A stretch of 64,000 nt of DNA from a virus (Duplodnaviria; Caudoviricetes). The stretch is taken from IMG/VR virus record IMGVR_UViG_3300030376_007544, positions 32,001-96,000 of that record; one strand, given 5' to 3'. Below, piece by piece: positions 9,931-31,460 of this stretch (position 1 is the first letter of the stretch; each line of letters begins with the position of its first letter). The translations under genes were made by a program, and so were the position numbers. A model generated the notes under the pieces. The model had not been told where the DNA came from. It made no database searches and was given only the letters and a program-made list of their open reading frames with translations.

Positions 9931-9937
9931 TTAGGCC

Positions 9938-10035: not shown

Positions 10036-10174
10036 CCCATGTTCGTCACATTTTTGCTCGTTTTGCGAAGCCACCCGAATCCTACGGTCAACCTACGGTC
10101 AGCATAAAACAGAAAAACCCCACACCCGAAAGAAAAAGAAAAGGTGTGGGGTTAGACTGGAAAGAAAGGTACTT

Positions 10175-10438
10175 TTAAGGTAGCACCAACCTCTGTCCTA
10201 TTTGAAGATATGAACCTCCATTGAGTTCGCTTGCTTGATAGACTGCGTGTCCAGTATGACCTTCGCAGTGTTCATTTATTATGTCCCAGAGAGTGTCGCC
10301 ACTTTCAACTGTCACTTCACCGGATTGGCACTTGTAGTCAATTGCGTCATTTGCGCCCTTGACTATCCCTATTCCCAGTCCAGCAGTGATAGCAATTGCG
10401 CCTATCCCTCCAAGAGCTTTTTTAGTTAATGTGTTCAT
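10175..10438 (-). CDS. membrane-anchored LysM-domain protein, leaderless
   Basis: N-terminal TM helix; VESGDTLWDI...LQIGQRLVLP; ATG 7 nt after TAAGGT. Confidence 0.85.
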   Translation of the reverse strand: MNTLTKKALGGIGAIAITAGLGIGIVKGANDAIDYKCQSGEVTVESGDTLWDIINEHCEGHTGHAVYQASELNGGSYLQIGQRLVLP

Positions 10439-10554
10439 AGGTATAACCTTAACACACTCCATGTCACATTGCAACACTTCTCAACAAAAAATAAAAAAAT
10501 AATTTCTTAGGTAAAAGGTTGCGTTCATGTTGCAACTCTGCTAACATGGTATTC

Positions 10555-10701
10555 ATGAGTTACAGATACGACATAAAACACGACTGGTACACTGATAAGT
10601 GGAACGTCGTTGATACTCGTAACAGAGACTGCACAGTCTCCACACATAGTTCTAGGGAAGAAGCACTAGCCGAAGCGCTAAAAAAGGATAGTTCTTCTTA
10701 A
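10555..10701 (+). CDS. small hypothetical protein, leaderless
   Basis: TTGCGT-17-TAACAT, ATG 7 nt downstream. Confidence 0.65.
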   Translation: MSYRYDIKHDWYTDKWNVVDTRNRDCTVSTHSSREEALAEALKKDSSS

Positions 10702-11286
10702 CTAAGGGGGATGCTGAGGCTACCCCCCTAAATCTTAGCCCCACTTCTGGTTTCACTCATTTCCCAGAGGTGGGGCTTTCTTCGTGTACCCCCAACATTC
10801 ACCCAAAGCTCAACACGAACATATGTTCGCATCGAGGTCAGGTCAGGCCGAGCAGGTCGAGAGGCCGATGTGTCCCGATTACATCGGGGCTTTATCAGAC
10901 CTAAGCTTAGCTCGAAGCTTAGCTTGACCAGCTCGAAGCTTAGCTGGATGCAGGAAAAGTTTGCCAAAAGGTTGCATTTTGAATCGTTTTGCGCTAAACT
11001 TCAGCAAACCCTACGGTCAGCCTACGGTCAAACCTGGGAAAAATCAACAAAAGCCAACGAAAAGTTGCAATTTTGTCCAGCTTTGCAGCAGCTTAGCAGC
11101 AGCTTAACCAGCTTAGCAGCAGCTCGGATGCAGCGATTCGAGGTCAACCTCGTGAAGTCCCGACTATATCGGGACGATATGACCTCACTTATTGGCCATC
11201 TCGCACTTGCATCCATATAAGCTCGCATACCAGGAAGAAACCCCAGACTAGGGAAATGAGTAAAACCTAGTCTGGGGTTATGAACT

Positions 11287-11379
11287 TTAGTGTCCTAAAA
11301 CATTTAGGACTGCTAAAGTTAGAAATAGGATTCCGAACATCCAATACATCGGAACCATTTCTTTTGAATACCAACTCAT
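11287..11379 (-). CDS. 30-aa membrane peptide
   Basis: MSWYSKEMVPMYWMFGILFLTLAVLNVLGH; GGGAG RBS; own promoter and terminator. Confidence 0.65.
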   Translation of the reverse strand: MSWYSKEMVPMYWMFGILFLTLAVLNVLGH

Positions 11380-11459
11380 CTTTATCTCCCTTCGTTGATA
11401 CTTCATCTTATCAAACTCACAACTAATTGCAACCTTTAATTAAAATTATTTATTATTTA

Positions 11460-11732
11460 TTACCACTCACGCCAACTTCTGCCCCAACGTGGAGATGTTG
11501 ATCGTAAGTAGGTTGCGAGTTCAGGGTACTTCTCTTCTATAGCGCTAGGCAAGTAAACGTGCACTAGCAGATCAAGCGTCCTAACGAACCTACAGGGAGA
11601 ACCAAACCAAAACCTACTTCGTGGTTTCATTTCGTTCTTGATGTAGGCACGAACCCTATTGTGATCTATGTCCCAATAATCAACGCCAACTTTATCTGCG
11701 AAGATTCGTAGTCCTATGTAGTAGTTGTTCAT
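11460..11732 (-). CDS. hypothetical protein, paralogue of 27108-27389, leaderless
   Basis: Shared DYWDIDH, SRFWFGSPC, LRSTSPRWGR. Confidence 0.8.
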   Translation of the reverse strand: MNNYYIGLRIFADKVGVDYWDIDHNRVRAYIKNEMKPRSRFWFGSPCRFVRTLDLLVHVYLPSAIEEKYPELATYLRSTSPRWGRSWREW

Positions 11733-12374
11733 ATGTATGAGTATAGGTTGTCTACAACTATATTGCAAGTTTTATCTAAGAAATTGTTTGATATTATTAG
11801 CTCCACCTAACATGCCCGAATGTTAGGCTTGCTTAACATTGAGTGTAAGTTTAACATAACACAGGTCAGGTCAGGTCAGGTCGAGCAGCAACAGGCCAAA
11901 TCGAGGTCAAGATGTCCCGAATATATCGGGACTAATCGAGAGCTTAGCAGCTTAGCAGCAGCTCGAAGCTTAGCTCGATCCCAGCTCAGCCGAAGCTGGA
12001 AAACCCTACGGTCAGCCTTTTTTTGCTAAAATGTTGCAAAACGAAAGGCTTTGTGATATAATGGAATCAACTTTTGCCCATCCTAGCACAAACTTTGGCG
12101 AAGACCATCCCAAATCCAGCTCGACGCAGCAACTTTGATCGACTCGACTCAGTGAGTCCCGACTATAACGGGGGTCTACTAGGTCGATTTGACCAGCTTT
12201 GGCCCTTATCGCCACATCCCGTATACCAGGAAGAGATCCCAAATTAGATAAGGAAATAAAACTAATTTGGGATCAACTCCGTAAATTTATTGTGTCACTC
12301 ACTTCTTGAGTGTGAGGGATTTATGTTGCCACGATCCCTACTCGCCGAATCTGATTCAGATGGTTTAGTTACGC

Positions 12375-12565
12375 TTAAGCCTGAACTGTGTCGAGCCATG
12401 CCTGCGCTTCCTCGTGCGTCTTAAACCCCATTAGGATTTTTGACGCTTCTGGATAAAGCGCGTGGAAGGCTGATGGTTCATTGCTCTCAGGTCCCCATAG
12501 CCGAAGCCATCGAGCACTGTAGCGAACTACGCCTGTCTCTATATGATCACCCCATTTCCACTCAT
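12375..12565 (-). pseudogene. small gene with an apparent frameshift at its start
   Basis: The leaderless ATG at 12565 is out of frame with the ~62-codon ORF that ends at 12375. Confidence 0.35.
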
Positions 12566-12641
12566 GTATCCAGGTTATCACGAAATTTCGCAAAACCACC
12601 CGGTTTTTTAAAAAAATTTAAATTTGCCACATTATGGGAAA

Positions 12642-12787
12642 TGAGAATGATTCTCAAAAGTTTGTGAAATGTTTCACTAAGTGACCGAACATTTGTTCCC
12701 CCGAACACTTGTTCCCCCCGAACATATGTTCCCCGAACACTTGTTCGTGTTAAGCATGCCTAACATTGAGTGTTAGCTTAACATAAC
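12642..12787. promoter_or_regulatory. stacked operators: Fur-like, Rex-like, 4x LexA-like, 2x DtxR-like
   Basis: TGAGAATGATTCTCA 12642; TTGTGAAATGTTTCACTA 12662; CGAAC-N4-GTTC at 12686, 12702, 12719, 12734; GTTAR-N6-HTAAC at 12749, 12772. Confidence 0.75.
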
Positions 12788-13354
12788 AAAATAAAAAAAA
12801 TAAAAAAATTTCAAGAAAAGGTTGTTTTTTTTGAAAGGCTGCACAAAAAATCGACAGGTCAAAATCGACCTCAGCGTGTCCCGAATATATCGGGGGTCTA
12901 CCAGGTCGCTGGAAACGCTACGGTCAAGCTACGGCCAAGCTTTCGAGCTGAAAAGGTTGCGAAAGCAAAAAACTTCTGCTAAAATGAAAAGAAATCTTCA
13001 AAAGTTTAGCGAAAGCCTGGGGAAAAACAACCAAAAGCGGCAAAAAGTTGAAAAAAAGCAGCTTCGCAGCGCAGCTTCGGGTCATCCAGCAGCCACATCC
13101 CGCATAAGTCCCGACTATATCGGGGGCCTCTAAGGTCCACGTATCCTGGATCGGATCATCCTTTTCACGAGCTTCACTCAGTGTGTTCATGTGACTACTT
13201 TTTAGTCTGGATCCCGATTTCACTCAGCGTGTTCATATGACTACTTTTTATTCTGGATCCAGAATCGTATTCATGGGATTTCCCACAATGTGGTTAATTT
13301 TGAAACTTTGGTAAAAAAGTTTCGAATGTCACAGGCATTAGATAGATTGAATAC

Positions 13355-13657
13355 ATGGAAAAGAAACAAGGGAAGGAAGGTGAAAAAATGAGAACTCTTG
13401 AGAACGGAGCAACCGCTCTTGTGTGGAGTGTGCAACACAATGCTGAAGGCAGTGGGTATCGCAACTACACAGGCGTTGTTCTGGCTCATGCGCCCCATCT
13501 GATGGATCCATATGCAACATGGACTGTCGCTTCAGATGATGGGATCACGTTCTGGTGTAATGCAGGGCATTACTACTCCAGTCGTGAAGATGCACATCAA
13601 GACTTCGTAGTGCGTGCCACTAACGAAACAGACTTGATGTCTCACGCAGTAGCCTAA
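13355..13657 (+). CDS. hypothetical phage protein
   Basis: Own promoter; PYATW...GHY motif; alternative start at 13388. Confidence 0.7.
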   Translation: MEKKQGKEGEKMRTLENGATALVWSVQHNAEGSGYRNYTGVVLAHAPHLMDPYATWTVASDDGITFWCNAGHYYSSREDAHQDFVVRATNETDLMSHAVA

Positions 13658-13773
13658 AGCGAGTCAGACTCGGAGCCTGATGGGGGCTTGGCAACAGAAC
13701 CCCATCACCCCAACAACTTGATAAGGAAGGAAAAAGATCCCCCACTCCCTAAGGTGGGGGATTTTTATTTACC

Positions 13774-13875
13774 CCAGATCCAGATCCAGATCCAGATCCA
13801 GATCCGAGCCTGATCCTGATCCGAGTCAGATCCAGATCCAGATCCAGATTGGAGTCAGATCCAGATCCAGATCCA
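13774..13875. repeat. (CCAGAT)n microsatellite containing 13 GATC
   Basis: Read directly from sequence. Confidence 0.9.
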
Positions 13876-14165
13876 TCCCCGAAACTCTTTCAAACTGGGC
13901 AACTTTGGAAATCGCTACGGTCAAGCTCCGGTCAAACTTTTTGCATCCTTCTGATCCGCCCTCGATCCAACCCTGCAACCTGGAATACCCCCGATTATAT
14001 CGGGACTTTCTGAGAAGTCGAGGGTCTAAAGCTGCATCCGAGCTGCATCCGAGCTGGAGCTTAGCTACTGCGTGAGTCCCGTTATATTCGGGACTATACG
14101 ATAGGTTTTGACCTGACCTGACCTGCTGCTCGACCTGACCTGACCTGATGACCATCCCCCGAACT

Positions 14166-14324
14166 AAGTTACTCAGTGGTAACTTGTGTTAGGCACGCTT
14201 AACACTAAATGTTAGGTGAACTTAACATATGTTAGGTATGCTTAACATTCAATGTTAGGCACGCTTAACATACTCCCCGAATAATGTTAGCTTCACCTAA
14301 CACTCAATGTTAGGGCTACTTAAC
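14166..14324. repeat. one GTTAC-N6-GTAAC plus six GTTAG-N6-YTAAC boxes in three 23-bp pairs
   Basis: 14188/14211, 14231/14254, 14286/14309. Confidence 0.85.
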
Positions 14325-14392
14325 GAAATAAATAATCTAAAGAATTCATCAAAAACACCCGGAGTGTCACACATAGATGATAGATTGAACTT

Positions 14393-14704
14393 ATGAGTAG
14401 TTTGGAGGTGAAAGAAAATATGAGTCATGTACTTCTGATTGAAGGCGCTGATGGCGATTTAGTTGATGCACATACAGTGTGTAGCGACAGTTGTCACCGG
14501 AGCCTAGCAGTAGAGTTAGACGTGCCCTATGGAGGGTGGTTCGGTTGTATCGAACTGGAGTTTAACGACTACTGTCAGTCTTGTGGGACGCTGATTCATG
14601 GGGTTGAAGGACCCCATGAGTTCCATAACACTGTATGTGAAGATACCACTTGTGAACTTTGTTCTGATGAACGTAAGTTGCAACTGGAACTCGCTACAGT
14701 TTAA
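14393..14704 (+). CDS. Cys/His-rich putative metal-binding protein
   Basis: CSDSC, CQSC, CxxxxCxxC; alternative start at 14420 after GGAGG. Confidence 0.7.
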   Translation: MSSLEVKENMSHVLLIEGADGDLVDAHTVCSDSCHRSLAVELDVPYGGWFGCIELEFNDYCQSCGTLIHGVEGPHEFHNTVCEDTTCELCSDERKLQLELATV

Positions 14705-15514
14705 GGCTTCAATCCAATCCTGAATAAGATTCGGACTCACACCCCTAGAGTTGGCACCAGAATAGGGGCAACACAAACAACAACACATTCAACGAAACAT
14801 TGAAATACAACTAAACAACTCATGGATATTCCCCGATTTACTTAGGTGAGTCGGGGAACTTTCCTGGAATCCGAGAAAGCTCGGAATTGCTACGGTCAAG
14901 TTATTCTGGTCAAACTGCAGCCAATCATCCGAACTCAAGCAGCCAATCGATTCGAACTCAAAAAGCCCCGTATATATCGGGACTAAATAAGAAGCTGAAT
15001 GAAATCGTGAGCTTAGCTGCTGCTGCGAGCTGAGCTTAGCCGCTAAAAAGTGACGAAAAGTGACGAAAGTGACGAAAAGTTCGAAACTTTTTTACCATCC
15101 TATCAAAAGTTTTTGAAAATTGCAACTTTTTGCCGAAAAACCAGGGAGCTTAGCCGCTGAATCAGCCGCTACACGCTGCAAATCGAAGTCGATTCAGCAG
15201 GTAAGTCCCGTAATAATCGGGACATATTAAGGTTGGCCTGACCTGACCTGCCATCCCAGCAGCCATCCAAGTGTTAGGTATGCTTAACACGAAATGTTAG
15301 GTACGCTTAACATTAGAACCGAACAAGTGTTCGTTTATGTCATTTATGTTACAGAAAAAGAAATTTAAGAAAATCTTGCGTAAAACTTGCAATTGTCACA
15401 CCCACCACCTAAGATGGTGTTTACATAGATGAGGCACCTGCCAAGTAGGTGAAGAGTCTGGGTAAGAGTCCCAGAAGGTGCCACATTGTAAACACCTATA
15501 GGAAAGAAAAACAT

Positions 15515-15760
15515 ATGCTTACACGTATGCATTTCGACACTGTAGCGAATAGCTTAAGGCTTAGGCTTGAAGCACTTATTGACAACCTCAATAGAGCGCC
15601 TCAAATCCACATGGAAGCCGTTAAGGTATGGCACGCAATCGCTTGCGATATGCGCACCATGTTCGCTGGAAGTAACCCTAGATTTGATGAAGAAAAGTTT
15701 AACGACGCTTCTGGAATCACTTCAGTGGAATACTTTCTCCCCAGTGTCAAAACCGACTAA
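15515..15760 (+). CDS. hypothetical phage protein
   Basis: LTRxHF...NPRFDxxKF motif; promoter and structured leader upstream. Confidence 0.7.
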   Translation: MLTRMHFDTVANSLRLRLEALIDNLNRAPQIHMEAVKVWHAIACDMRTMFAGSNPRFDEEKFNDASGITSVEYFLPSVKTD

Positions 15761-16067
15761 GAGTCGGAGTCCGGCGGAACTCGGCAACAGAATCCGCCCA
15801 AATAAATAGCCAACCTAAACAAATACTCCGCTGAAAGGGCGGGGTATTTGCCTGGAATCGAGAAAGTTCGAAAACCCTACGGTCAAGCTACGGTCAAGCT
15901 TTTGAGCTGGTCGGCAGGTCAAAACTCAAGTCGATCCCAATCAGTCCCGAATATAACTGGACTATCTAACCGTTCTTTTGTTTAATTCGAGCTTAAGGAC
16001 CACCCAGGCAAAGGTTCCCGACTTGTCTGACGGGAACCTTTTTTAATCCGGTATTTAGTTTGGAACC

Positions 16068-16160
16068 TTATCGCTTTTTGGGCGGTATACAACTTTTCAG
16101 TATGTAAAACCACACCATAGCAAATCCTACTGGACCTACTAGAGCAAATACAATTTCCAT
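16068..16160 (-). CDS. 30-aa membrane peptide
   Basis: MEIVFALVGPVGFAMVWFYILKSCIPPKKR; own promoter and terminator. Confidence 0.6.
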   Translation of the reverse strand: MEIVFALVGPVGFAMVWFYILKSCIPPKKR

Positions 16161-16302
16161 GTATTTCTTTCTGAGTGATTAAGTACTTCTTAACCTCTCA
16201 CCTTCAATACTAGGTGCAAATATCATAAATTGCAACCTTAAAACAAAAAAAATAAAAAATAACCCCTGATCCGAAGATCAAGGGCTACTTTTGTTATTAG
16301 TT

Positions 16303-16566
16303 TTAGCCTATTCCTGCGAACTTATTAAATTCAGCCTCTTCAGCGATTGTTAGTTCTCTAGGTTGTTGGTTGTGGATTTCTAACCCCCACATTGTTCGGT
16401 GCATATGCTCAATCTCTTTAGCCTGTCTGTAGTCTTTACAAAACAGTTGTAGTATTTGACAATCAGTTTGATCGCCAGTTGGAGATTGAAACCATAAGTG
16501 TAGAGCATTATCTCTTACTTCGGTTCCGCATAAAGCTCCCTTTGTTGTTATTGTTGGTTCTATCAT
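16303..16566 (-). CDS. hypothetical protein
   Basis: Promoter, RBS and terminator bracket the ORF. Confidence 0.7.
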   Translation of the reverse strand: MIEPTITTKGALCGTEVRDNALHLWFQSPTGDQTDCQILQLFCKDYRQAKEIEHMHRTMWGLEIHNQQPRELTIAEEAEFNKFAGIG

Positions 16567-16706
16567 GTATTCCCATCTAATCCGTTAGTACTTCTAACTT
16601 CATAACTTAATCGTATCATGACCCGAAACAGATTGCAACCCCAATAGCAAAAAATTATCTAAAATAATTCTTGCTTTTGTCACACACCTATGTTAAGGTA
16701 ATAAAC

Positions 16707-16859
16707 ATGATAAACAAACTAAAAGACAACGGACATAAGTGGAAGGCACTTGATGGAGATGTTCGGTGTGTTGTGTGTGATGCACGGCCATCGGGAGCAT
16801 CTGCCAAAAAGTTGTGCATACGCTTTGATCTGGAGAGAATGCAAGGCTCTAAAATATGA
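16707..16859 (+). CDS. small Cys/His protein, leaderless
   Basis: TTGCTT-17-TAAGGT then ATG; H...CxxC...C. Confidence 0.6.
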   Translation: MINKLKDNGHKWKALDGDVRCVVCDARPSGASAKKLCIRFDLERMQGSKI

Positions 16860-16957
16860 TTACAATTCTAGTCACATTTGGAGTTGGAGTGATAGTTGGA
16901 ATACTTATCGCAACTTACTTAGAGCATGGGGCAATACTTTTGCCCGATGACGAGTAG
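16856..16957 (+). CDS. 33-aa membrane peptide
   Basis: ATGA overlap with the upstream stop; MITILVTFGVGVIVGILIATYL... Confidence 0.6.
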   Translation: MITILVTFGVGVIVGILIATYLEHGAILLPDDE

Positions 16958-16989
16958 CAAACTCTACGGTCAGACTATTTCGCAAAAAG

Positions 16990-17207
16990 ATTGAGTGTCC
17001 TGACGGGTACATAAGGACCAACGGCAGTTGGCGGTATTGTTGGGGTGTGGTAGGAATACTGCACTAAAGCGACACACTCTAGGGAATCGAGCCTACTTTC
17101 GGGGACAGATAGCAATATGTCCAGTCCGATAGGGCTAGCCGTACCAAGCGGTTGAGTACTCCTTAATCCCTAACCCCACCTTCGTGCTGAGGGTGGGGTA
17201 TTCTTTT
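16990..17207 (+). ncRNA. candidate structured RNA
   Basis: No ORF, GC-richer, several stems, ends in an intrinsic terminator. Confidence 0.35.
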
Positions 17208-17229
17208 ACCCCACCCCCTACGGTCAGCA

Positions 17230-17481
17230 CTACCGTCGGTTGTAGCGCCTTCGGTTAAACGCCCGACATGTACGGCAGTTAGTCGCCAACTTCTCTTCGC
17301 CCTGATAGACGTAAGTGAATTGCTCCACTTTCAACCATTGACGACAAGTGCGACATATGTACATCTCGCCCTTCGCAGCTCGTTTAATGGCTTCAAGATC
17401 AGTGTGGTCGTGGTTGTCTTCCATGACACTGGCACGATCCATTCTTGCCTTTAACTTAGTCGCTTGAAAACGATCTTTCAT
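17230..17481 (-). CDS. Zn-finger protein
   Basis: Two CRTC motifs; GGAGGTG RBS. Confidence 0.7.
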   Translation of the reverse strand: MKDRFQATKLKARMDRASVMEDNHDHTDLEAIKRAAKGEMYICRTCRQWLKVEQFTYVYQGEEKLATNCRTCRAFNRRRYNRR

Positions 17482-17678
17482 AATTCACCTCCTTAGGTAA
17501 TTTGTCTTACACTACATATAGGCACCAAAGTCGTAAAAAGCGGACATAAAAATAAAAATAATTTATTTTGCTTAAAGGGTTGCATTCGGGCCACAAAGAT
17601 GCTACGCTGGTAATTACCAAGTTGGAAGTACCAATTTGGCTCAAGTCGGAAGTACTGACTTGATTAAGGAGATATTCG

Positions 17679-17822
17679 ATGCAAAGAGAATTGAACTGCA
17701 AATGTGTTAGATGTGACAAATTGTACACAACTAGCAAACTAGCAGGAATAGATCGCAAAGGTTTCTGCATTAACTGTTGGCAACACCAACGAAATATATG
17801 GAGACTCGTAAGATCAACATAA
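17679..17822 (+). CDS. 47-aa Zn-finger protein
   Basis: CVRC...CINC; AAGGAG RBS. Confidence 0.65.
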   Translation: MQRELNCKCVRCDKLYTTSKLAGIDRKGFCINCWQHQRNIWRLVRST

Positions 17823-18084
17823 ACATAAACTAAAACATAAAGTTTCGTGAAGAAGTTTTCTCATTTTCCTTCTTCATGAAACATTCCCAAAAAGACCCAC
17901 ACTTTTTCATTTTCTTTCGAGTGTGGGTCTTTTTCTGTCCAGCTACATAATACAAAATCAAAAAAATACTAAGAGTTGTATTTATATCGGGACTTTCTTA
18001 CTTACCCTTCCTTCTATTACACCTCTATGGTGTCCCTATGGTGTCCCTACCCAGGCAGAAGGGGAGCCGAAGCCCCCCTCCAAA

Positions 18085-18279
18085 TTAAGACGCTTTTTTA
18101 GCGTTGAGTTTTTTGAAGTAAGGAGTGACATCATCAACCACTTTTTCACCGTAGTGAATTTCAGTGGCGATTACCATGTCTCCACAGTCCCTTATTTCTT
18201 GGGCTTTTTCTTCGAGCTCATATTCACATACGATTTCCGAAGTGCCTTCGTTATAAGCAATTAATAAGAATTCTCTCAT
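18085..18279 (-). CDS. hypothetical protein
   Basis: RBS, promoter and terminator bracket the ORF. Confidence 0.6.
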   Translation of the reverse strand: MREFLLIAYNEGTSEIVCEYELEEKAQEIRDCGDMVIATEIHYGEKVVDDVTPYFKKLNAKKAS

Positions 18280-19111: not shown

Positions 19112-19656
19112 GTCGGACCCTTTCTCTAATTCAGAAGCCTATCTGGGACTCTCACCCTGACTCTTCACCTAATGGCTAGACTCCTGTTTTCTTTGATATA
19201 TCCAGGTTACCATCGTTGTGAGACAAAACCACCCGGTTTTTCAAAAAAATTTCAAATAATTTTTTTCGTAACATAAATGACATATTTGTTAAGTTCGCCT
19301 AACAGGCCATGTTCACGCTTGCGAACAGATTATGTTAAGTGCACCTAACAAACGATGTTAAGCAGAGCTAACAAATAAAAAAATAAAAAAAATAAAAAAA
19401 ACTTGACAAAAGGTTGTTTTTGTGAAAGCAGCGTGCAGGTCAAAATCGAGGTCAGTATGTCCCGATTATTACGGGACTCTCTTCCTTCTATTAAGCCTCT
19501 ATGGTGTCCCTACCGCATGACCTGCAGCAGCGCTGACCAGTACCCGCCCAGGAAGAAGCCCTAGCAGGAAAATGAGTGAAACCTGCTAGGGCTTTCGGAC
19601 ATCGCATCAGTAGTTAGCAAAACTAGGTTACTAATCAGTAGTGCGATCCTCCGATT

Positions 19657-19794
19657 TTATGAGGAGAGATGTTTCGCTAGTTTGGGGTGCTCCCTTAGCG
19701 TCTTCTCTCTTACTTCACGCTCATGATGCCTGTGCATCGTTTTGGCGAGCGTAGCGTATAAGAGCGCTCCTATTATGTAAAGTGCTAATGTCAT
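19657..19794 (-). CDS. 45-aa membrane-anchored peptide
   Basis: MTLALYIIGALLYATLAK...; GAAAGG RBS; own promoter. Confidence 0.6.
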   Translation of the reverse strand: MTLALYIIGALLYATLAKTMHRHHEREVREKTLREHPKLAKHLSS

Positions 19795-22866: not shown

Positions 22867-22957
22867 CTTTTGTCTATTCCTAACTTCGCTCGGTACTTCC
22901 TTGCGATAACTCCATTATACACCGTCTACAGTAAATTGCAAGTCTTTAGGTAAGATT

Positions 22958-23488
22958 TTACAGAGTTAAGTTCTGTAGTTCTCCGTTATCCATCATCTCA
23001 AATAAGATCGTTAATGACTTACTTTGCCTCTCTTGAGTGTGTTTACCTTGATCTACTTTGAATGACCAGCGTGGGTCCTTCTTCGCTTCCTCTAAACCTT
23101 TGTTACTGAAAGGTTCACCAGTGTAGTGGTAGACGCTAGTAATTGTTGGTTTACGTTCTTTAGAACTCCAGAGCTCGTTTAGGCAGTCACATTCATGATC
23201 ACCAAACTCTCCTACTAATGCTCCGATATGCTCCAGATCACAAGTACTTAAAAGATCAGTCTGTACTACCAGATGATCTAATAGTTCACTTCCCTCAAAA
23301 ATGGTAAGAGAAGGAGACTCTGTAGACACAACTAAGTCTACTGCTGTAGCCATGTCTAGTTGGTCGTGGATAGGCATAACTTCTGCCCACTTGTATCCAT
23401 CTTCTTCGTGTATGTCAAGAACGAGAACAAGCGAGTCGCCATTGACGACCCGCAAGTCTCCTCTCGCTAAAGTTCTATTAGCACCCAT
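22958..23488 (-). CDS. hypothetical protein, possibly PemK-like fold
   Basis: RGDLR...LVLVL...VMPI pattern; GGAGG RBS. Confidence 0.55.
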   Translation of the reverse strand: MGANRTLARGDLRVVNGDSLVLVLDIHEEDGYKWAEVMPIHDQLDMATAVDLVVSTESPSLTIFEGSELLDHLVVQTDLLSTCDLEHIGALVGEFGDHECDCLNELWSSKERKPTITSVYHYTGEPFSNKGLEEAKKDPRWSFKVDQGKHTQERQSKSLTILFEMMDNGELQNLTL

Positions 23489-23586
23489 GTACGAGATTAC
23501 CTCCTATGAATGCAAACAGAAAGACTGCTACGGCAAGTATTATAGAGACACCTATGCGTCTCCTGAAGTAAATAGTATCCCAATCT

Positions 23587-23871
23587 TTATTCAAGGTCCT
23601 CACCTACTTCTATTGCTACTGCTTTAACCATCTGTCTGATTTCAGTTCTTCCATTAGTATGACTCCGCAGAACTGTCATAAAGGCTGTCTCTCTCATTTC
23701 CATGAGCGAGTCCTCTAGGAGTTCATTGTCATCATGTCCTTCATCAAGAGCCTCTTGATAAAGGATTTCTAAACCTTCTTCTACCATCTTGAGGGATTCC
23801 ATTACTAGGTAAAGACGATCACTAAATGGTAGTGCTTCGGTATCTGTTCGTTCTTGAAACTCAATACTCAT
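23587..23871 (-). CDS. acidic hypothetical protein
   Basis: Start overlaps the upstream stop. Confidence 0.7.
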   Translation of the reverse strand: MSIEFQERTDTEALPFSDRLYLVMESLKMVEEGLEILYQEALDEGHDDNELLEDSLMEMRETAFMTVLRSHTNGRTEIRQMVKAVAIEVGEDLE

Positions 23872-24056
23872 TACCAGTTCCCCTTTCTACAAGCCTTACG
23901 ACTTGCTTCTTTTTTACGATTAGTAAACTTGACTGCACGCTGTCTACGGCCTTCTTGCATGTGTGCCACTTTGGACTCATACGCTAATTTCCGTATTGAC
24001 TTGTGTATGTCATATGGTTCTAATTCTATTTTTAGCTTTTTCTTAGTTCTAGCCAT
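23871..24056 (-). CDS. small basic protein
   Basis: AAGGAG RBS; K/R-rich. Confidence 0.65.
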   Translation of the reverse strand: MARTKKKLKIELEPYDIHKSIRKLAYESKVAHMQEGRRQRAVKFTNRKKEASRKACRKGNW

Positions 24057-24140
24057 TTTGACTCCTTTTGTCTAGGCTGATTTGTTGTTAGTTTAAGGAT
24101 ACCAAAACCGGAGAGGCATTGCAACCTCTCCGGCATGATA

Positions 24141-24776
24141 TTATAGATTCGCTAATGCTCCTCTAGCGCTACTATGATGAGCAGACAATTCGCTAGTCTC
24201 ATCGTAGTGACACTCTCCGGCAAAGTACGCTTGCCCTCCCTCGAAGCACATACCTTCCTCTCGGAAAGATACGCTAATTTTTAGGGTAGGGAATTGTTTA
24301 GACACATGCTCCCAGAATGAATTACTTAATGGACTCCATGCCGTTTCAAAACGACCATCTATCTGTCCACGTTCATCATCGTAGTAAGAGTCCAGATGGG
24401 TTTCATAGTCTCCCCATTTGGTTCCCCAATTCTCGTCAGAGATTGCCCACGAGTACCAGTCACTGAAACCTGTTGTTTCTCTAGCCTCAATACCAGCAGC
24501 CCACTCTTCTGCATGAATCGCTTTTGCTTTATTGTACTTATCCATATTCCAATTTTCATTGGTTGGATTGTTCACCCATTCCATATACTTTCCATCTTCA
24601 TCAAATTGCTCTGATTTTGGACTTGGGGATTTAGTACCCTCAAGTATTTCTGGCATGGGCATGAGGTTTACGATACGAACGTCATCAGTTACCTGATCCC
24701 TGATCGCTTCCTCGAAACGTCTTACATCAGACGCTGGTCCTTCTACCTCTAGGTAGTTTTCGCAATGGTTCGGCAT
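24141..24776 (-). CDS. DUF1281/Api92-like ferredoxin-fold protein
   Basis: MPNHCEN, WYSW...NWGTKW, FETAWSP. Confidence 0.8.
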   Translation of the reverse strand: MPNHCENYLEVEGPASDVRRFEEAIRDQVTDDVRIVNLMPMPEILEGTKSPSPKSEQFDEDGKYMEWVNNPTNENWNMDKYNKAKAIHAEEWAAGIEARETTGFSDWYSWAISDENWGTKWGDYETHLDSYYDDERGQIDGRFETAWSPLSNSFWEHVSKQFPTLKISVSFREEGMCFEGGQAYFAGECHYDETSELSAHHSSARGALANL

Positions 24777-24777
24777 A

Positions 24778-24969
24778 TTAGCCTCTACTTTCTAGCAGAT
24801 CATCTGCCATGTCTCGGATACCTTGATAATCTGGTACCTCGTCACTGAAATGAATGTCATTAGGAACATTTAGCTCCGCTAACATACTTTCAATTTCTTC
24901 ATCTGGTAAAGTTTCCTCTACCTCTATTGTGTTTTTCATAAAGTCTCCTGACTTTGGTTTGTTTAACAT
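24778..24969 (-). CDS. small acidic protein
   Basis: Promoter upstream; packs against the next gene. Confidence 0.6.
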   Translation of the reverse strand: MLNKPKSGDFMKNTIEVEETLPDEEIESMLAELNVPNDIHFSDEVPDYQGIRDMADDLLESRG

Positions 24970-25022
24970 ATTACGAGTGTATCAGGCTAGGGAGTCTATT
25001 GCAACTCCCTAGCCCAAATAAC

Positions 25023-25406
25023 TTATCGCTTTGGTTGGGTAACTTTCAGCGATTGTACTTCTTTGACGGTGATTGCTTGGTTTACCAAGTCTCCATCTAA
25101 CCAACCTGCTTCGATTGCTCCGTCAATGAGTTTCATGTCACCGACTCGTTTGGTTACTCTTTGATGTTGTCCTTGTGGAAGAACATCTTTGAGAACCTCA
25201 TTGTCAATGCTTCGTCTATTTTGTGTGACGATTGCAACTTTGGTTCCGTCTGCAAGAGTTACAGATTCAACATCTAACGCTTTGAATTGCGCTTCTGCTT
25301 CTTCAACTGCATCTTTTGCATCTGCTAAAGCGGAACGAAGTTCAACAACTTTTTGGGCTGCTAACTCCTCTACTTTAGTTTGGTTAATAATTACTGTTGT
25401 ATTCAT
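25023..25406 (-). CDS. hypothetical protein, paralogue of 18731-19111
   Basis: Sequence near-identity; GGAGG RBS. Confidence 0.85.
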   Translation of the reverse strand: MNTTVIINQTKVEELAAQKVVELRSALADAKDAVEEAEAQFKALDVESVTLADGTKVAIVTQNRRSIDNEVLKDVLPQGQHQRVTKRVGDMKLIDGAIEAGWLDGDLVNQAITVKEVQSLKVTQPKR

Positions 25407-25660
25407 TTTAAGTCCTCCATGACTTATTAGTGTGTTTTCAACTTAACAGATCGTTTTCTTTCTGTCAAGTCTTTACCTAAGATTTTTCAAATAAATTTTA
25501 TTTGCTTCCTCATCGGTATATTCAATTTACCAGATGGGTGTGACAATGACAACCTCGAACACAATAAAATTAAATAATTATTTTTGGAATAATGACTTGA
25601 CAAGGTAAATCAGGCCTGCTACCATTACTGACGTAAACAACTATAACTCATGGAGGTACT

Positions 25661-25912
25661 ATGAGCGACACAATGCAAGACATTGAAACAAAATGGATAG
25701 AGCGAATCAGCAAGGAGCTTGTCGGTAAGACAATCACGAGTGTTGAGTATCTCTCTCCAAAAGAAGCAGAAGATAATTATTGGTACAAGCGACCAATCGC
25801 AATTACTTTTGATGATGGAACATGGATAATACCCATGTCAGATGACGAAGGAAATGACGGAGGTTCTCTTGCCACAAGCATAGAGGAACTTCAGATAATC
25901 CCAGTCCTCTAA
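25661..25912 (+). CDS. hypothetical phage protein
   Basis: LVGKTI...SDDEGNDGG motif; GGAGG RBS. Confidence 0.75.
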   Translation: MSDTMQDIETKWIERISKELVGKTITSVEYLSPKEAEDNYWYKRPIAITFDDGTWIIPMSDDEGNDGGSLATSIEELQIIPVL

Positions 25913-26191
25913 TTCCACCACAGTCCTGAACATGACTCAAAACTGTTCACCCAAAACCAGACATATATTTTCGGAGACAAAACCGAAACAAAAAAAAGAT
26001 AGGACTTCCCCTGCGCTTTGTTGAACTCCAGCAAACAGCAGCGAAAGCAGCAGCAGGTCAGGTCAGGCCAAATCTGGTCAAAATCAAAAGAAGGGTGAGA
26101 TAGTCCAGTTTCTTTCGGGACTTCCTTAGTGCTATATGAGCTCAATGGTGTCCCTATGGTATCCCTACGGTTGGCAAGACCAGCAACCAGG

Positions 26192-26633
26192 AAGAAACCC
26201 CACCCTAGTGTTTATAACTTTAGGTGAGGCTTTGCCTGACTTGAAGCGGTCTGATGAACCCACGAAAGCGCTTTCGTACTCACGAGCAGCCTTCAAGCCA
26301 AACGACGAAGTAGATCAACAGCACGCTTTCACGCCGTCACTCTCATCTTACAAAATAGTATCTTTACCGACTCGGAGTCTATATTTAGCATCCCATACTC
26401 TAAGTAACTATGGTGCTAATAGAAACCTTTTGGTTCTACTTCAATACTGGTAGTGACTCCAGTATCCGTTTTTTATTCTATTGTGTGTAACATACCGGAT
26501 ACAAATCGTTTGAGGTTGAATCAGGTCGCTAGGCTCCCATATAATCCAGACCAGCAAGGTCGAATATAGTTCCGATATGTTACCTGTAACTTTGGTGGGG
26601 TAGCCGCAGCGCCCCACCTCCTGTTACCGGATA
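26192..26633 (-). ncRNA. candidate ncRNA, about 440 nt
   Basis: TTGACA-17-TAATGT promoter; terminator plus CCTGG; no sense ORF of 60 aa or more. Confidence 0.45.
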
Positions 26634-26675
26634 TAAATACATTAGCAGACTCTTAAAGGTTTGTCAAGTCTTTTT

Positions 26676-27014
26676 TTAAGAAATTTTAACTTGCCTATTA
26701 AGTAAGGTAACTTTACGAGCTTTTTTAACTGGCTCTCCGTTATCCTTGCGAAAGAAATGACCAGCCTTGTACGGATTGTAAGAGACATCTATTGTCGTGT
26801 CTAATTCCTCATCTGTGAGTGTTCCGATTACAAAGGCGTGGACATTCTTCCTGCCTTCCTTTAGCACCCTTCTACGGCCAGCCTCACTCACTCTAAACTC
26901 AACGTCTGTCAGGTTTAGTGAGTCAGCATAGTCAGTAACCCTCCACCCCTTCGGGGTTTTGGTTTGAATACTAAATGTATGTTTATGTAAGTTGTAATAA
27001 ACTTTTACTTTCAT
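26676..27014 (-). CDS. hypothetical phage protein, leaderless
   Basis: VYYNLHK...RKNVHAFV...YNPYK. Confidence 0.8.
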   Translation of the reverse strand: MKVKVYYNLHKHTFSIQTKTPKGWRVTDYADSLNLTDVEFRVSEAGRRRVLKEGRKNVHAFVIGTLTDEELDTTIDVSYNPYKAGHFFRKDNGEPVKKARKVTLLNRQVKIS

Positions 27015-27107
27015 GTGTTCCACTGTAGCAGGTCTTGAATACCATTGCAAGTAAATCTTAAATAAAAATTACTTGACAACTGAAACAAAGTATGTCATAC
27101 TGTTCTT

Positions 27108-27389
27108 ATGAATAAATTAAACAACTACCAAATAGGCATCATGATGCTGGCAAACAAGATAGGAATTGACTACTGGGACATAGATCATGGAAGGATTCGC
27201 AAGTTCATTAAGAGCGAAACGAAACCTTGCAGTAGGTTCTGGTTCGGCTCCCCTTGTAAGTTTATTAGAAGACTGGACCTGCTGGTCCACGTTTACCTAC
27301 CAAGTTCTATTGAGGAAAAGTATCCTGAATTAGCTTTTTACTTACGTTCTACTTCTCCAAGATGGGGAAGAAATTGGCGTAATTGGTAA
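27108..27389 (+). CDS. hypothetical protein, paralogue of 11460-11732
   Basis: Shared motifs; leaderless start. Confidence 0.8.
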   Translation: MNKLNNYQIGIMMLANKIGIDYWDIDHGRIRKFIKSETKPCSRFWFGSPCKFIRRLDLLVHVYLPSSIEEKYPELAFYLRSTSPRWGRNWRNW

Positions 27390-27470
27390 AAATCTTAAAT
27401 AAGACTTGACAAGCCAGAAAACTTGTGCTAATAATTGTATTAACAACGAACAGGATCAAGGAGGTCCAAA

Positions 27471-27638
27471 ATGAATACCGATAAATGCCCACGATGTGGG
27501 ATAAATGAATTAACAGAATATCCGGCTCTTAGTCGGACAGACAATGAAACTGACATATGCAGTGAGTGTGGAGTCTTTGAAGCAGTCGAGCAATGGGCAG
27601 GTTCACTAACACCTAAAGGAGCGTGGCAACATGCCTAA
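27471..27638 (+). CDS. 55-aa Zn-finger protein
   Basis: CPRC...ALSRTDN..ICSEC; GGAGG RBS. Confidence 0.7.
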   Translation: MNTDKCPRCGINELTEYPALSRTDNETDICSECGVFEAVEQWAGSLTPKGAWQHA

Positions 27639-27948
27639 TCTAAACGTAGAATTAACAGAACAAGAGTGGGAGCAAGTTAGCGCTGCTATTGACTCGCACT
27701 TAAATCAGATGGAAGAACATAATGATCTTATGAATCCTGATGATGCTTATCCAGAAGCAACTGATGACATGATGGCATTAACTTGCGCACGAGAGAGAAT
27801 CCATAGAAACCTTAGCCCAACTTTTGCGGAAGCATGGGTAAAGGAAGGAATCGAGCGAGGCTTTCTTGACATAGATGGTGGCATACAGTTCTTAACTGGA
27901 GAGGCTGGTCCTAACCACGAAGATTGGGATCAGGACAGAAAATCTTAA
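27631..27948 (+). CDS. acidic hypothetical protein
   Basis: AAGGAG RBS; overlaps the upstream stop. Confidence 0.7.
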   Translation: MPNLNVELTEQEWEQVSAAIDSHLNQMEEHNDLMNPDDAYPEATDDMMALTCARERIHRNLSPTFAEAWVKEGIERGFLDIDGGIQFLTGEAGPNHEDWDQDRKS

Positions 27949-28040
27949 TTAAAACTTGACACATATAAAAAACTATGCTAAAGTTTACTTATCAAGTAAA
28001 TCGCTTGATAATAACACCGACCTAATGGAGGTCCAAAAAT

Positions 28041-28943
28041 ATGGCACATATGCTAACTAGAAATAAAACATGGGATCAGGGCTTATCGGCCACTGATGCT
28101 GCGTTAGATGCTGATGCTCTCTTTGAGCCACAACTAACAGGTACTATTCTTCCTAACGGAACTGTAGATGATTCGTCATTTACTATTTACCGTGATATGG
28201 CAGACGGTACTCAAGTTGTTCTCAATGCTGGCGTTAAAGAAGGCTACTATGCTGGATCATACCAATCACTTCTGAACACGGCTGAGGCCATGTTCCCTGA
28301 AAGTGTTACTGGTATGCAGACATGGGATAATGGTGCAGTTCTAGTGTTCACTCAAGATATAGAAGATACATTCTCTTTCGGTGACGGTGACTCTTTAACT
28401 AAACACATTATGTACACTGCTAGTCTTAACAGCACCTACAAAACAAAAGCAATCGGTTTTACGTTCCGACCTTTCTGTACTAACCAAGAGGGACAAGGTA
28501 CTCTCCAAATTGCACAGAAGCGAACTCGTAACCACGATGGCTTACTGTTCCAAAAAGCTCAGATAATGTCAAGTTATGCTGATGCTTTTGATAGGTTCAT
28601 CACCAATGCAACTATGCTCAAAGGTTTACCGATGACCAGTGGTCTACGGAACACAATCCTTGACGAAGTTGCTCCACTGTTGGACTTTGATCCAGACGCT
28701 AACACGAAAGCAATAAATGCTGCGCAGAAGCGTCGTGATGGAATCATGTACTACTACGAGGAAGAAGCAAATACCTTCGGGCATAACGCTTACTCTCTCT
28801 ATCAAGCAGTACAGTCTTACGAGTACCACATCGGTACTAAAGGTAAGAGCAAACAACTGAAACAAGTTAATGTTGTATCCGATCCGGCAAAGGCTCAAAG
28901 CCTTACCATTCGGACTGGCGACATGCTACTTGCGTCAGTCTAA
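28041..28943 (+). CDS. DUF932-like phage/plasmid protein
   Basis: R-x-x-CTN motif; C-terminal AYSLYQAVQSYExH; typical size. Confidence 0.65.
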   Translation: MAHMLTRNKTWDQGLSATDAALDADALFEPQLTGTILPNGTVDDSSFTIYRDMADGTQVVLNAGVKEGYYAGSYQSLLNTAEAMFPESVTGMQTWDNGAVLVFTQDIEDTFSFGDGDSLTKHIMYTASLNSTYKTKAIGFTFRPFCTNQEGQGTLQIAQKRTRNHDGLLFQKAQIMSSYADAFDRFITNATMLKGLPMTSGLRNTILDEVAPLLDFDPDANTKAINAAQKRRDGIMYYYEEEANTFGHNAYSLYQAVQSYEYHIGTKGKSKQLKQVNVVSDPAKAQSLTIRTGDMLLASV

Positions 28944-29022
28944 AGTTTGGGGGAGGGGCTTGACAGAGCCTCTCCCCTATGCTAAAGTCAAAATATTAAC
29001 TAACAATTTTACAGGAGGTAAA

Positions 29023-29475
29023 ATGAAAAAACCAAACAATGAAAATCAAATAAACCAAGAACAAGAAGCAGATCAAGAACTGGATAACTTCTACGGCTGG
29101 AAAGCCGTGCGAAAAGCTACAGACAAACTTATTGATCTTCGGAAGGAATATAAGCAATATAAAGATCGGGGAAAGAAACAACAGTTTCACGAAGTCCTAG
29201 ATTACATTATTGAAAACTTAGATAATCTTTTTGAATTAGGGCTTGATGATAAAGGCCTTGACATTCATACGCTCGTAGAGGAAGAACTCGTAGAGTTAGA
29301 TGCTTATGAGAAGATATCTTCTGATCCGAGTCCAATAAGTCCAATAGTAGAAACAGATGACCAGTACAACAATCGTGTATTGGACAACATCATAAGCTTT
29401 TTGCAGGAAAACGAACAGTACGGAGATGACTGGGATTCAGAAATCAATGTACTAAATAATTTGAAAAAATCTTAA
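29023..29475 (+). CDS. acidic hypothetical protein
   Basis: AGGAGG RBS before ATG 29023. Confidence 0.7.
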   Translation: MKKPNNENQINQEQEADQELDNFYGWKAVRKATDKLIDLRKEYKQYKDRGKKQQFHEVLDYIIENLDNLFELGLDDKGLDIHTLVEEELVELDAYEKISSDPSPISPIVETDDQYNNRVLDNIISFLQENEQYGDDWDSEINVLNNLKKS

Positions 29476-29556
29476 ACAAGACTTGACAGGGTATAAAAAC
29501 TCTGCTAATGTTTTGTTTGTGGAGGAAAGCCCTCTACAGATGTACTGGAGGTACAT

Positions 29557-29964
29557 ATGAAAACAAAATTGCCAATCGGATCAGGAACTAAAGAAGATGA
29601 ACTCTTTTTTGATGTTCGGATAGATAATCATAGTAATGATATTATCGGAACACTCATTATGAGTTTCACCTACGGTACCAGTGTCCGAAGGTTAAAAGCC
29701 GACATTCGCAGGAATAGTTACGACTTCCAATCATGGGGTTCCGTATCACTATTCTCTGAAAGTGTTGGACAGTGGAATGAACTCCACAAAACTCAAATTG
29801 AGGACTTGCCCATCATGGGATACCGTGACAACGGTGCAGGAACTCAAATACAATCATACTTGGGACAATACAATTACACAGACTACGAGTGGGCTGAACT
29901 CTGCTCTGACATGTGGAATAGTTTAGACTCACTACTAGAAATAGGAAGGAAGGTGTTGCGATAA
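29557..29964 (+). CDS. hypothetical protein
   Basis: GGAGG RBS and promoter. Confidence 0.7.
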   Translation: MKTKLPIGSGTKEDELFFDVRIDNHSNDIIGTLIMSFTYGTSVRRLKADIRRNSYDFQSWGSVSLFSESVGQWNELHKTQIEDLPIMGYRDNGAGTQIQSYLGQYNYTDYEWAELCSDMWNSLDSLLEIGRKVLR

Positions 29965-30452
29965 TGGGAGAGCGAGCAGTAATCTCAATTAATCAAGGCT
30001 ACCTAGATAGCGAAGGACAACCAAAGTCAAGAGGTGTTGTACACTTCTACACACATTGGACAGGAGATAGCGTTTGCGAAATACTTGCAGATGGACTTCA
30101 AAAATGTGTAGACGCTGGTCGTATAGATGACGAGGCGTATGCAAGTCGGATAATTTTTGACACATTAACCAATCCTCGCAGAGTTGTAGAACCTGAACTA
30201 CAGGATCACTATGACACTACTGGATATGGAATTATGATCACGCATGCACCAGCGGACATCGGCTACCCAGCACCATGTGTTTGGTATAACAAAGGCTCGG
30301 AAGAACCAGTTGTACTTTACAACAAGGACTACTGGGGAGATGATCATGCTAACGAGCTCGGTGTTGAAAGCGCCTATACCGTTATGCAGTTCATAAATAA
30401 ATTTAGATTATCTAAAGAAATTTTAGATAAAGACTTGACAGCGATACAATAA
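29964..30452 (+). CDS. hypothetical phage protein
   Basis: YTHWxG...DxxYxxRIIF motif. Confidence 0.75.
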   Translation: MGERAVISINQGYLDSEGQPKSRGVVHFYTHWTGDSVCEILADGLQKCVDAGRIDDEAYASRIIFDTLTNPRRVVEPELQDHYDTTGYGIMITHAPADIGYPAPCVWYNKGSEEPVVLYNKDYWGDDHANELGVESAYTVMQFINKFRLSKEILDKDLTAIQ

Positions 30453-30531
30453 TCTGCTAACGTTGTTGTTGGTGGGGGGAAGTTCCTCCCACCAACCAAA
30501 ACCATAAAGAAATGTACTGGAGGTACACACA

Positions 30532-31251
30532 ATGGAAAATCAAGAGAGAGAGAATTGTTGGGAAACTTACAAACAGATTCTTAACGCAGGAGTGGACAGA
30601 GTAATTCTGTACGGTCCTCCGGGAACTGGTAAGACCTTCTCCGCACTTCATACTCAAAAGAGAGAAGGGCAAGAGTCTCACAGACTTACTTGTACTGACG
30701 ACATGACGAACATGGATGTCACTGGAGGGTTCCTACCATCAGCAGATGGTGGCTTCCAATGGATTGAAGGTGTTGCGATCAAGGCTCGTCGTACTGGAGC
30801 TCGACTCGTAGTAGACGAAATAGATAAGGCAGGTGGTGACGTATTCGCTACGCTCCTAAACATGACTGATTCTGACGGATCGTCTGAATGGGAACACCCA
30901 GTAACTGGAGAAAAAACAACTCCGGCTCCGGGTTATACCGTAGTGATGACAACTAATGTTGAAGTCATTGAAGAACTGCCACAGGCACTGATAGATAGGT
31001 TCCCAGTTCGCTTGCGAATAGATCGCCCTCACCCAGATGCTCTGGCTACATTGCCAATGCACTGGAGAGGCTATGCTGATCGTATGGCTGACGCTGGCGC
31101 AGAGCGTATGTCGCTCCGCTTATTCCAATCCATGAGCAAACTTGCTCAACAGATGGGTGAGGAAAAAGCAGCCAAACTTATCTTAGGAGAACGAGCCACT
31201 GCATTTATTGAAGCAATCAACATTGATAAGTTTCAATCTGTAGAAGGCTAA
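30532..31251 (+). CDS. MoxR/CbbQ-type AAA+ ATPase
   Basis: GPPGTGKT, VDEID, TTN, ALIDRF. Confidence 0.9.
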   Translation: MENQERENCWETYKQILNAGVDRVILYGPPGTGKTFSALHTQKREGQESHRLTCTDDMTNMDVTGGFLPSADGGFQWIEGVAIKARRTGARLVVDEIDKAGGDVFATLLNMTDSDGSSEWEHPVTGEKTTPAPGYTVVMTTNVEVIEELPQALIDRFPVRLRIDRPHPDALATLPMHWRGYADRMADAGAERMSLRLFQSMSKLAQQMGEEKAAKLILGERATAFIEAINIDKFQSVEG

Positions 31252-31460
31252 GATCGTGCCTCCAAGTGGTTAGGTTTTATTTCTTTCGCCTAGCCATCGC
31301 ACAGAGGGAGAGGGGTTTGGTTGGTTACCCTCTCCCTCACAGTCTATAAAAACCAACCACAAAAAATTAGATAAAAGACTTGACAAAAAGCTCAAAGTCT
31401 GCTAAATTTGTTATATCAAGCAAGTCGCTTGATACTAAATAATCCGTAGAGAGGATTACA

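Follow-up and report, generated by a model that had tools for sequence, protein, structure and literature searches.

Canonical intrinsic terminators have stems of 5-9 bp, loops of 3-5 nt and U-tracts of 7-9 nt (PMC3643576). Terminator loops are usually seen as information-free spacers; those of OxyS, SdsR/RseX/ArrS and RepG have a function of their own (PMC11979758, PMC8295292). Here we describe a set of hairpins with large, pyrimidine-rich loops in a phage genome. The window analysed (64,000 nt) comprises bases 32001-96000 of the 128,360-bp IMG/VR virus record IMGVR_UViG_3300030376_007544, and positions are those of the window. On several of these hairpins a 13-nt loop is kept over stems that have changed, a contrast characteristic of recognition elements. 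The loop, UUUYACUCAUUUY, thus probably does more than cap a terminator, and a trans-acting factor might dock on it.

The closest described systems resemble these hairpins in part. RepG (H. pylori), OxyS-fhlA and SdsR/RseX/ArrS (E. coli) and LhrC (Listeria) likewise expose a pyrimidine-rich loop on a terminator stem (PMC8295292, PMC11979758, PMC4132741), and in such small RNAs (sRNAs) the loop sequence matters beyond termination. These are, however, dedicated sRNAs with mapped targets, whereas the phage loops sit on the 3' ends of protein-coding early messenger RNAs (mRNAs) and no phage target was found for them. With lambda boxB/N, iron-responsive elements and the MS2 operator the phage hairpins share an invariant loop, a covarying stem and several copies per genome. 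Those loops measure 5-7 nt instead of 13 and lie near the promoter or in the start region, each with a known binding protein, whereas the phage hairpins stand at the 3' end and are known from sequence alone. Finally, as in canonical and actinobacterial intrinsic terminators, a GC-rich stem lies right behind a gene and is followed by a U-rich stretch, but the phage stems are 12-16 bp long with loops of 13-14 nt, the loop sequence is kept across unrelated genes and only 2-5 U precede an interruption.

The original prediction had listed eight hairpins, and we find all eight at the places, on the strands and with the loops it gave (Table 1). Seven are strong, lie at 10.1-19.6 kb and have stems of 12-16 bp with energies of -16 to -26 kcal/mol (-26.0, -24.3, -23.7, -16.3, -20.7, -16.5 and -19.7 kcal/mol in ViennaRNA); the eighth, at 31266-31297, is weak (-10.6 kcal/mol). 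The loops are about 12-14 nt long and at least 85% pyrimidine. When the whole genome was scanned for stems of at least 11 bp closing loops of at least 10 nt and at least 84% pyrimidine, 7 loci passed, all of them between 10.1 and 19.6 kb of the window, against 1 qualifying locus in total in 30 Markov-shuffled genomes.

Table 1. Hairpins, the genes in front of them and genes that bear on the host. Bits are scores of the main-type covariance model.
Feature	Coordinates	Strand	Description	Context
Main-type hairpin	10737..10777	+	14-bp stem, loop UUUCACUCAUUUC, tail UUCUUCG	35 nt 3' of stop codon of 48-aa gene; 63.7 bits
Main-type hairpin	11239..11279	-	14-bp stem, loop UUUUACUCAUUUC, tail UCUUCCUGG	7 nt 3' of stop codon of 30-aa membrane peptide; 64.3 bits
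Main-type hairpin	19556..19594	-	13-bp stem, loop UUUCACUCAUUUU, tail CUUCCUGG	62 nt 3' of stop codon of 45-aa membrane peptide
Main-type variant	17842..17882	+	A/U-rich 14-bp stem, loop UUUUCUCAUUUUC, without U-tract	first of tandem pair behind 47-aa zinc-ribbon-like gene
U-rich-loop hairpin	17889..17934	+	16-bp stem, loop UUUCAUUUUCUUUC	second of tandem pair
U-rich-loop hairpin	10116..10153	-	12-bp stem, loop UUUCUUUUUCUUUC, tail UUUCUGUUUU	21 nt 3' of stop codon of LysM gene
Hairpin	12235..12274	-	13-bp stem, loop UUUUAUUUCCUUAU, tail UCUUCCUGG	100 nt 3' of stop codon of 74-aa open reading frame
Weak hairpin	31266..31297	+	10 pairs, 3 of them G-U; loop UUUAUUUCUUUC	14 nt 3' of AAA_5 (MoxR-like) gene; stronger hairpin 31304-31338 comes next
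48-aa early gene	10555..10701	+		upstream of hairpin 10737-10777
87-aa LysM-domain gene	10175..10438	-	PF01476, E 5e-6	upstream of hairpin 10116-10153
30-aa hydrophobic membrane peptide gene	11287..11379	-	own promoter, GGGAG ribosome-binding site	upstream of hairpin 11239
45-aa membrane peptide gene	19657..19794	-		upstream of hairpin 19556
47-aa zinc-ribbon-like gene	17679..17822	+	CxxC...CxxC	upstream of tandem hairpins
WhiB transcription factor	36822-37208	-	Pfam E 1e-14	
Mycobacteriophage L5 gp82-like protein	26676-27050	-	E 3e-34	
Phage sigma-70 factor	39660-40592	-		

That the hairpins derive from 3' ends, as originally predicted, is borne out by their location in the 3' untranslated regions (UTRs) of short transcription units. 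The distance from the stop codon of a short gene on the same strand to its hairpin is 7-100 nt in every case, and the structures are stable and GC-rich. The genes ahead encode a LysM protein, a 48-aa protein, membrane peptides of 30 and 45 aa, a 74-aa open reading frame (ORF), a 47-aa zinc-ribbon-like protein and a MoxR-like ATPase. Behind the stems follow 2-5 U and then a C/U-rich tail, often UCUUCCUGG (UUUCUGUUUU at 10116); hairpin 17842 lacks a U-tract, but 17889 comes next. The phage's tetraloop terminators are built on the same frame, ARCCC...GGGYU UUUCCUGG (also given as UUUUCCUGG), and the large-loop hairpins escaped a standard terminator scan because it admits loops only up to 8 nt. 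The hairpins' position and tail, the frame they have in common with the tetraloop terminators and the covariation at the level of RNA described below all argue that the hairpins are most likely terminators or 3'-end stem-loops of early cassettes. Mycobacterial RNA polymerase terminates at imperfect U-tracts with stimulation by NusG (PMC3993855), and the imperfect U-tracts thus agree with an actinobacterial host. A search of Rfam 15 at the gathering score returned only a transfer RNA (tRNA), tRNA-Glu at 1178-1250, and matched the hairpins to no family; near and distant DNA searches of a phage GenBank collection gave no match.

Closer comparison of the hairpins qualifies the description of a single family with unrelated stems and conserved loops. 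The part that stands is the loop: 10737+, 11239- and 19556- (the main type) have UUUYACUCAUUUY in common, closed by GG/CC. The stems of these three are not unrelated, as the base ARCCCYA is shared along with the closing pairs and only the middle 4-6 pairs differ. The loop of 17842+ is a variant of the main type, one base shorter. Hairpins 10116- and 17889+ have the stem core CCCACAC as well as the loop in common, and to judge by these sequences they are plain homologues over stem and loop; 12235- and 31266+ share nothing but U-richness with the others. The eight are a heterogeneous set. In a covariance model built from main-type hairpins, main-type members score 51-67 bits and the U-rich group just 19-24 bits; the L087 orthologue of 19556, outside the training set, scores 51.7 bits, and 17842 is not detected at E<=1.

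The original prediction had staked itself on loops being conserved in relatives, and the main-type loop is kept in all close relatives reached through the small cassette proteins (L067, L069, L070, L087 and others). Across 8 distinct main-type hairpins it varies at positions 4 and 13 alone, and there only between C and U. Their stems are paired in 97.3% of cells, with 10 of 14 pairs altered on both sides, a covariation reached in 0 of 500 shuffles; the paired stem is under weaker constraint than the loop it closes. Orthologues of 10737 in L067, L069 and L070 keep the loop and alter the stem with compensation, and the L069 orthologue of 19556, which lies between unalignable flanks behind a gene about 65% identical, retains 12 of 13 loop bases on a new stem. 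Outside the main type, the L087 orthologue of 17889 keeps its loop with a compensatory change from A-U to C-G in the stem, and 31266 is kept in L087 and L088 with the loop longer by one U and Watson-Crick pairs in place of two G-U pairs. Neither 17842 nor 12235 has an orthologue among the relative loci compared. Read on the mRNA strand, 245 stem pairs include 15 G-U and 0 A-C; the G-U pairs would be A-C mismatches on the other strand, and selection therefore acts on the sense RNA, neither on duplex DNA nor on an antisense transcript.

Could the hairpins be plain terminators without any loop function? The common loop would then reflect recent descent or gene conversion among duplicated modules, and U-richness would persist because flexible U loops let large hairpins close fast. 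We regard this as unlikely, although several observations speak for it. The main-type hairpins are also alike in stem base and closing pairs and so are homologous modules, 10116 and 17889 are homologous overall, natural variants show cassettes shuffled at spacer repeats, and the main type is limited to a shallow clade. The LysM terminator loop (10116), moreover, drifts while its hairpin is kept: its 14 nt carry 2 substitutions in L067, are reduced to about 11 in L070 and, in L075 and L080, where the stem is new, to about 7. Neutral loops, however, should diverge faster than paired positions, whereas these loops are more conserved than the stems and far more than the flanks. The stems of main-type paralogues differ on both sides at 4-6 middle pairs while the 13-nt loop shows 0-2 C/U changes, and a tract of 13 nt is too short for gene conversion to homogenise alone.

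Several copies of an invariant loop on a free stem, borne by unrelated transcripts, are what characterises recognition hairpins, and it is for this reason that we propose terminators of early cassettes whose UUUYACUCAUUUY loop is a docking site for a trans-acting factor, a reading we judge evenly balanced between right and wrong. Each early cassette, consisting of promoter, small gene, hairpin and CCUGG, would be a self-contained unit in which the hairpin ends transcription and protects the 3' end. RNA polymerase would halt at the short imperfect U-tract behind the stem, with NusG aiding. The GG/CC-closed loop on three or four of the hairpins would then offer a sequence-specific docking site to a factor, more probably a protein than an RNA, that acts jointly on several unrelated early transcripts and alters their stability or read-through. 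Hairpins 10116, 17889, 12235 and 31266, the others with U-rich loops, would have ordinary large terminator loops, whose U-richness is kept while their sequence drifts. Were the loop read in this way, the phage would have a simple post-transcriptional control of a whole set of independently transcribed early cassettes, exerted through a small (41 nt) and well-defined element, and a natural phage example would join the few recent cases of regulatory terminator loops.

Several points weigh against this proposal. Phage-encoded proteins with cold-shock or S1 domains were looked for and none was recognised. Loops of 12-14 nt lie outside the canonical 3-5 nt, and the U-tract is short and interrupted where canonical ones have 7-9 nt, so that the large-loop hairpins are atypical and termination at them may be poor. 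The time depth of the conservation is short, since the carriers of the main-type loop are close relatives, whose adjacent proteins share 73-94% identity, and it is missing from relatives with 67% identity in SNF2; in these, the gene-poor repeat region is present with short-loop terminators only. Finally, the comparison of the best match for each large-loop hairpin in L067, L069 and L087 (loops 91-97%, stems 79-89% and 40-nt flanks 34-59% identical) partly matched paralogues instead of orthologues; paralogues make the same point.

Large terminator loops are not confined to the eight hairpins. Hairpins in terminator position with loops of 13-16 nt also occur at 33101-33136 (+), 13678-13707, 31304-31338 (+) and 26195-26232 (-), with loops TGTATCTCTACTAC, TTCTGTTGCCAAGC, GTTTGGTTGGTTA and one that is A-rich. 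At 33101-33136 and 13678-13707 the loops are likewise kept in L087, L069 and L075 with compensatory stem changes, and large, conserved loops on terminators are therefore a more general feature of this phage group.

Single strands rich in U and C are the preferred targets of cold-shock proteins, which can also act as antiterminators. A host pyrimidine-binding protein, for instance one with a cold-shock domain, might accordingly land on the U-rich loops; bound before the 3' arm is made, it would prevent closure and allow conditional read-through, and in bulk the loops could act as a sponge. All eight are at least 85% pyrimidine and 12-14 nt long, leaving room for one or two cold-shock domains, and each is transcribed ahead of its 3' arm. 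We nevertheless find this improbable: eight loops make a small sponge, and the idea explains general U-richness while leaving the strict ACUCAU invariance of the main type unexplained.

The promoters and probable host of the phage bear on how the loops might act on initiation. The early promoter at 10515-10557 comprises an A-rich upstream tract, AAAGGTTGC and TGCTAACAT; 7 nt separate its end from the ATG of the 48-aa gene, and an alignment shows promoter and spacing kept in L067, L069 and L070. In at least some early promoters a TGnTAACAT element stands 7 nt before the ATG. With promoters ending this close to the start codon, the mRNAs are probably leaderless, which fits the actinobacterial host group; promoter-ATG spacing is alike at 11732-, 13355+, 16566- and 9627+. 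As for the host, WhiB is encoded in the window, and together with the L5 gp82-like protein, the sigma-70 factor and a DNA polymerase whose best matches are Streptomyces phages it points to an actinobacterium, and to a marine actinophage. One member of a neighbouring 90-aa protein family is labelled as from an Actinobacteria metagenome-assembled genome. A search of sequencing runs found near-identical DNA in marine metagenomes from at least 11 studies, with no RNA run among the runs listed; the actinophage is thus widespread there although uncultured.

The original prediction further proposed that the loops, several of them described as exact complements of GAAAUGAG-type start regions, block the initiation of translation by antisense pairing. 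Taken literally, the complementarity holds for the loop sequence, but the longest contiguous complement to a phage start region is 9 nt, and the proposed block found no support in pairing with phage start regions. Briefly, start regions were defined as -20 to +13 of the 154 genes called genome-wide, and RNAduplex energies were compared with those of composition-matched shuffled loops. By this measure the real loops do not surpass the shuffled ones and mostly fall short of them. An excess of pairing over gene interiors reflects the purine-rich start regions, as shuffled loops gain equally, and the 12235 loop, with UCCUU in its sequence, is the only one to beat its shuffles (41 vs 17.6 +/- 7.9). 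With the hairpin's own start region, pairing ranks 144, 43, 11, 138, 49, 53, 128 and 108 of 154. Across the whole phage genome no site other than the hairpins' own antisense falls beyond the shuffled-loop range, the best sites lying within it at -19 to -21 kcal/mol, and complements of at least 10 nt occur only in the hairpins themselves. Loops containing CAU show a modest excess of 6-7-nt start-region matches (p 0.00-0.13, uncorrected, from a k-mer count), which is unsurprising because a U-flanked CAU set meets A-rich AUG contexts. A 17-mer from the loop has 19 matches in IMG/VR, all of them antisense to gene starts and outside hairpins, and at least 120 in bacterial genomes, none in a real hairpin; 57 of the 120 bacterial matches listed are antisense of a real ORF start. 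The argument from complementarity is thus one from the generic resemblance of the loops to start regions and from nothing further.

It is in our view rather doubtful, then, that the loops seed antisense RNAs from 3' UTRs or terminator loops that pair with AUG-proximal (GAAAUGAGU-type) or purine-rich Shine-Dalgarno regions and block initiation; in a host rich in leaderless mRNAs, the pairing could be with the 5'-terminal AUGAGU of phage or host mRNAs. In favour, the main-type loop matches exactly the reverse complement that a generic start region would have, as the 17-mer matches in IMG/VR and bacterial genomes illustrate, ATGAGT starts 12 of the 154 phage genes, the CAU loops somewhat exceed their shuffles at 6-7 nt, and the variable loop positions hold only C or U, either of which pairs with G. 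There are precedents as well, since RepG acts in this manner through its terminator loop, which is C/U-rich (PMC8295292), and OxyS kisses a start region (as cited in PMC11979758). Set against this are the duplex energies, the own-mRNA ranks of 11-144, the best phage sites that stay within the range of shuffled loops, and the drift in relatives of U-rich loops without CAU. The antisense reading survives for host targets only.

In S. aureus, the 3' UTR of icaR pairs with its 5' UTR through a pyrimidine-rich motif complementary to the ribosome-binding region. The pyrimidine-rich 3'-UTR motif is a likeness to the phage hairpins, for which, by contrast, pairing with the own mRNA is unremarkable.

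A more striking possibility, which we consider a long shot, is that the loop is a terminator-loop code read by one trans-acting partner on several unrelated early transcripts. The loop includes CUCAU, as found in the anticodon loop of the initiator tRNA, and is exactly antisense to 5'-AUGAGU; it might bind leaderless mRNAs at their 5' ends, or else a factor by which the initiator anticodon is recognised. If so, the phage could redirect initiation early in infection of an actinobacterial host in which leaderless translation is common.

The surroundings of the hairpins raise the question of a function in DNA. Between about 7.8 and 23 kb the coding fraction, by our gene calls, is about 26-29%, against 82.5% for the whole genome, and the stretch consists of units of about 1 kb, each with promoter, small gene, hairpin and then a spacer rich in repeated motifs. 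The spacers hold CTACGGTCA doublets in one orientation, spaced 930-1000 bp, at least 16 GTCCCG-N7-CGGGAC palindromes, and TGTTAGG-N4-CTTAACA palindromes, including an array of 23-bp period at 8894-9120. In metagenome contigs of natural variants, different cassettes are joined exactly at GTCCCG palindromes and CTACGGTCA doublets, among the joints listed from fragmented contigs of four DNA metagenome runs, and the spacers seem to be recombination linkers for cassette shuffling. Scans of IMG/VR gave one match to the CTACGGTCA doublet, in an unrelated Mu-like contig, and 27 single, unrelated matches to the GTCCCG palindrome.

A site that forms a cruciform or folds as a single strand, used by a recombinase or in replication at cassette boundaries in the manner of integron attC, would account for the position of the hairpins at the ends of cassettes whose order differs among natural variants, and one variant joint (11247 to 12313) falls inside a hairpin. 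We consider it very improbable all the same. G-U wobbles occur on the mRNA strand only (15 vs 0), most listed joints lie at the GTCCCG palindromes and CTACGGTCA doublets and not at hairpins, and none of those listed switches strand. An attC site, moreover, has conserved stem-base boxes and a variable centre on a folded DNA strand, the reverse of a conserved loop on a variable stem. That the spacer lying between 10737 and 11239, which are convergent hairpins, inverts was considered separately and rejected, as the joints listed include no strand switch.

At hairpin 11239, the 30-aa peptide cassette between the 90-aa gene and the hairpin in the window is absent in L069, where the equivalent hairpin stands directly behind the 90-aa gene; in L070 a 41-aa gene occupies the cassette site. 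In these arrangements the hairpin keeps its place while the small gene before it is swapped.

Further candidates around the loops were discarded. ORFs from an ATG opposite the loops are 4-10 codons long and were not taken as genes, neither a promoter in the loop on the opposite strand nor an antisense promoter within the spacer had a convincing -10 element, and a 7-nt loop match to a conserved 16S ribosomal RNA segment, expected by chance, was dropped. A terminal repeat at the record ends was likewise rejected, with only about 30 nt alike.

Elsewhere, the window encodes a family A DNA polymerase, an SNF2 helicase, a sigma-70 factor, baseplate J and tail-spike proteins. Hexamer microsatellites of CAGATC and GACCTG types lie at 13775-13897 and 14109-14148. 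The latter has many length variants and a very high summed depth in four metagenomes, and so is hypervariable or common to other DNA. The gene-poor region of L032, one of the relatives at 67% identity, has different repeats at 8900-10000 and 10900-11000, namely several TTATCCACA DnaA-box-like doublets and repeated CGAACGTATGTTCG palindromes resembling Cheo/LexA boxes. Two paralogues of 90-93 aa, at 11460-11732 (-) and 27108-27389 (+), with function unassigned, belong to a protein family of at least 174 clusters from marine and freshwater metagenomes.

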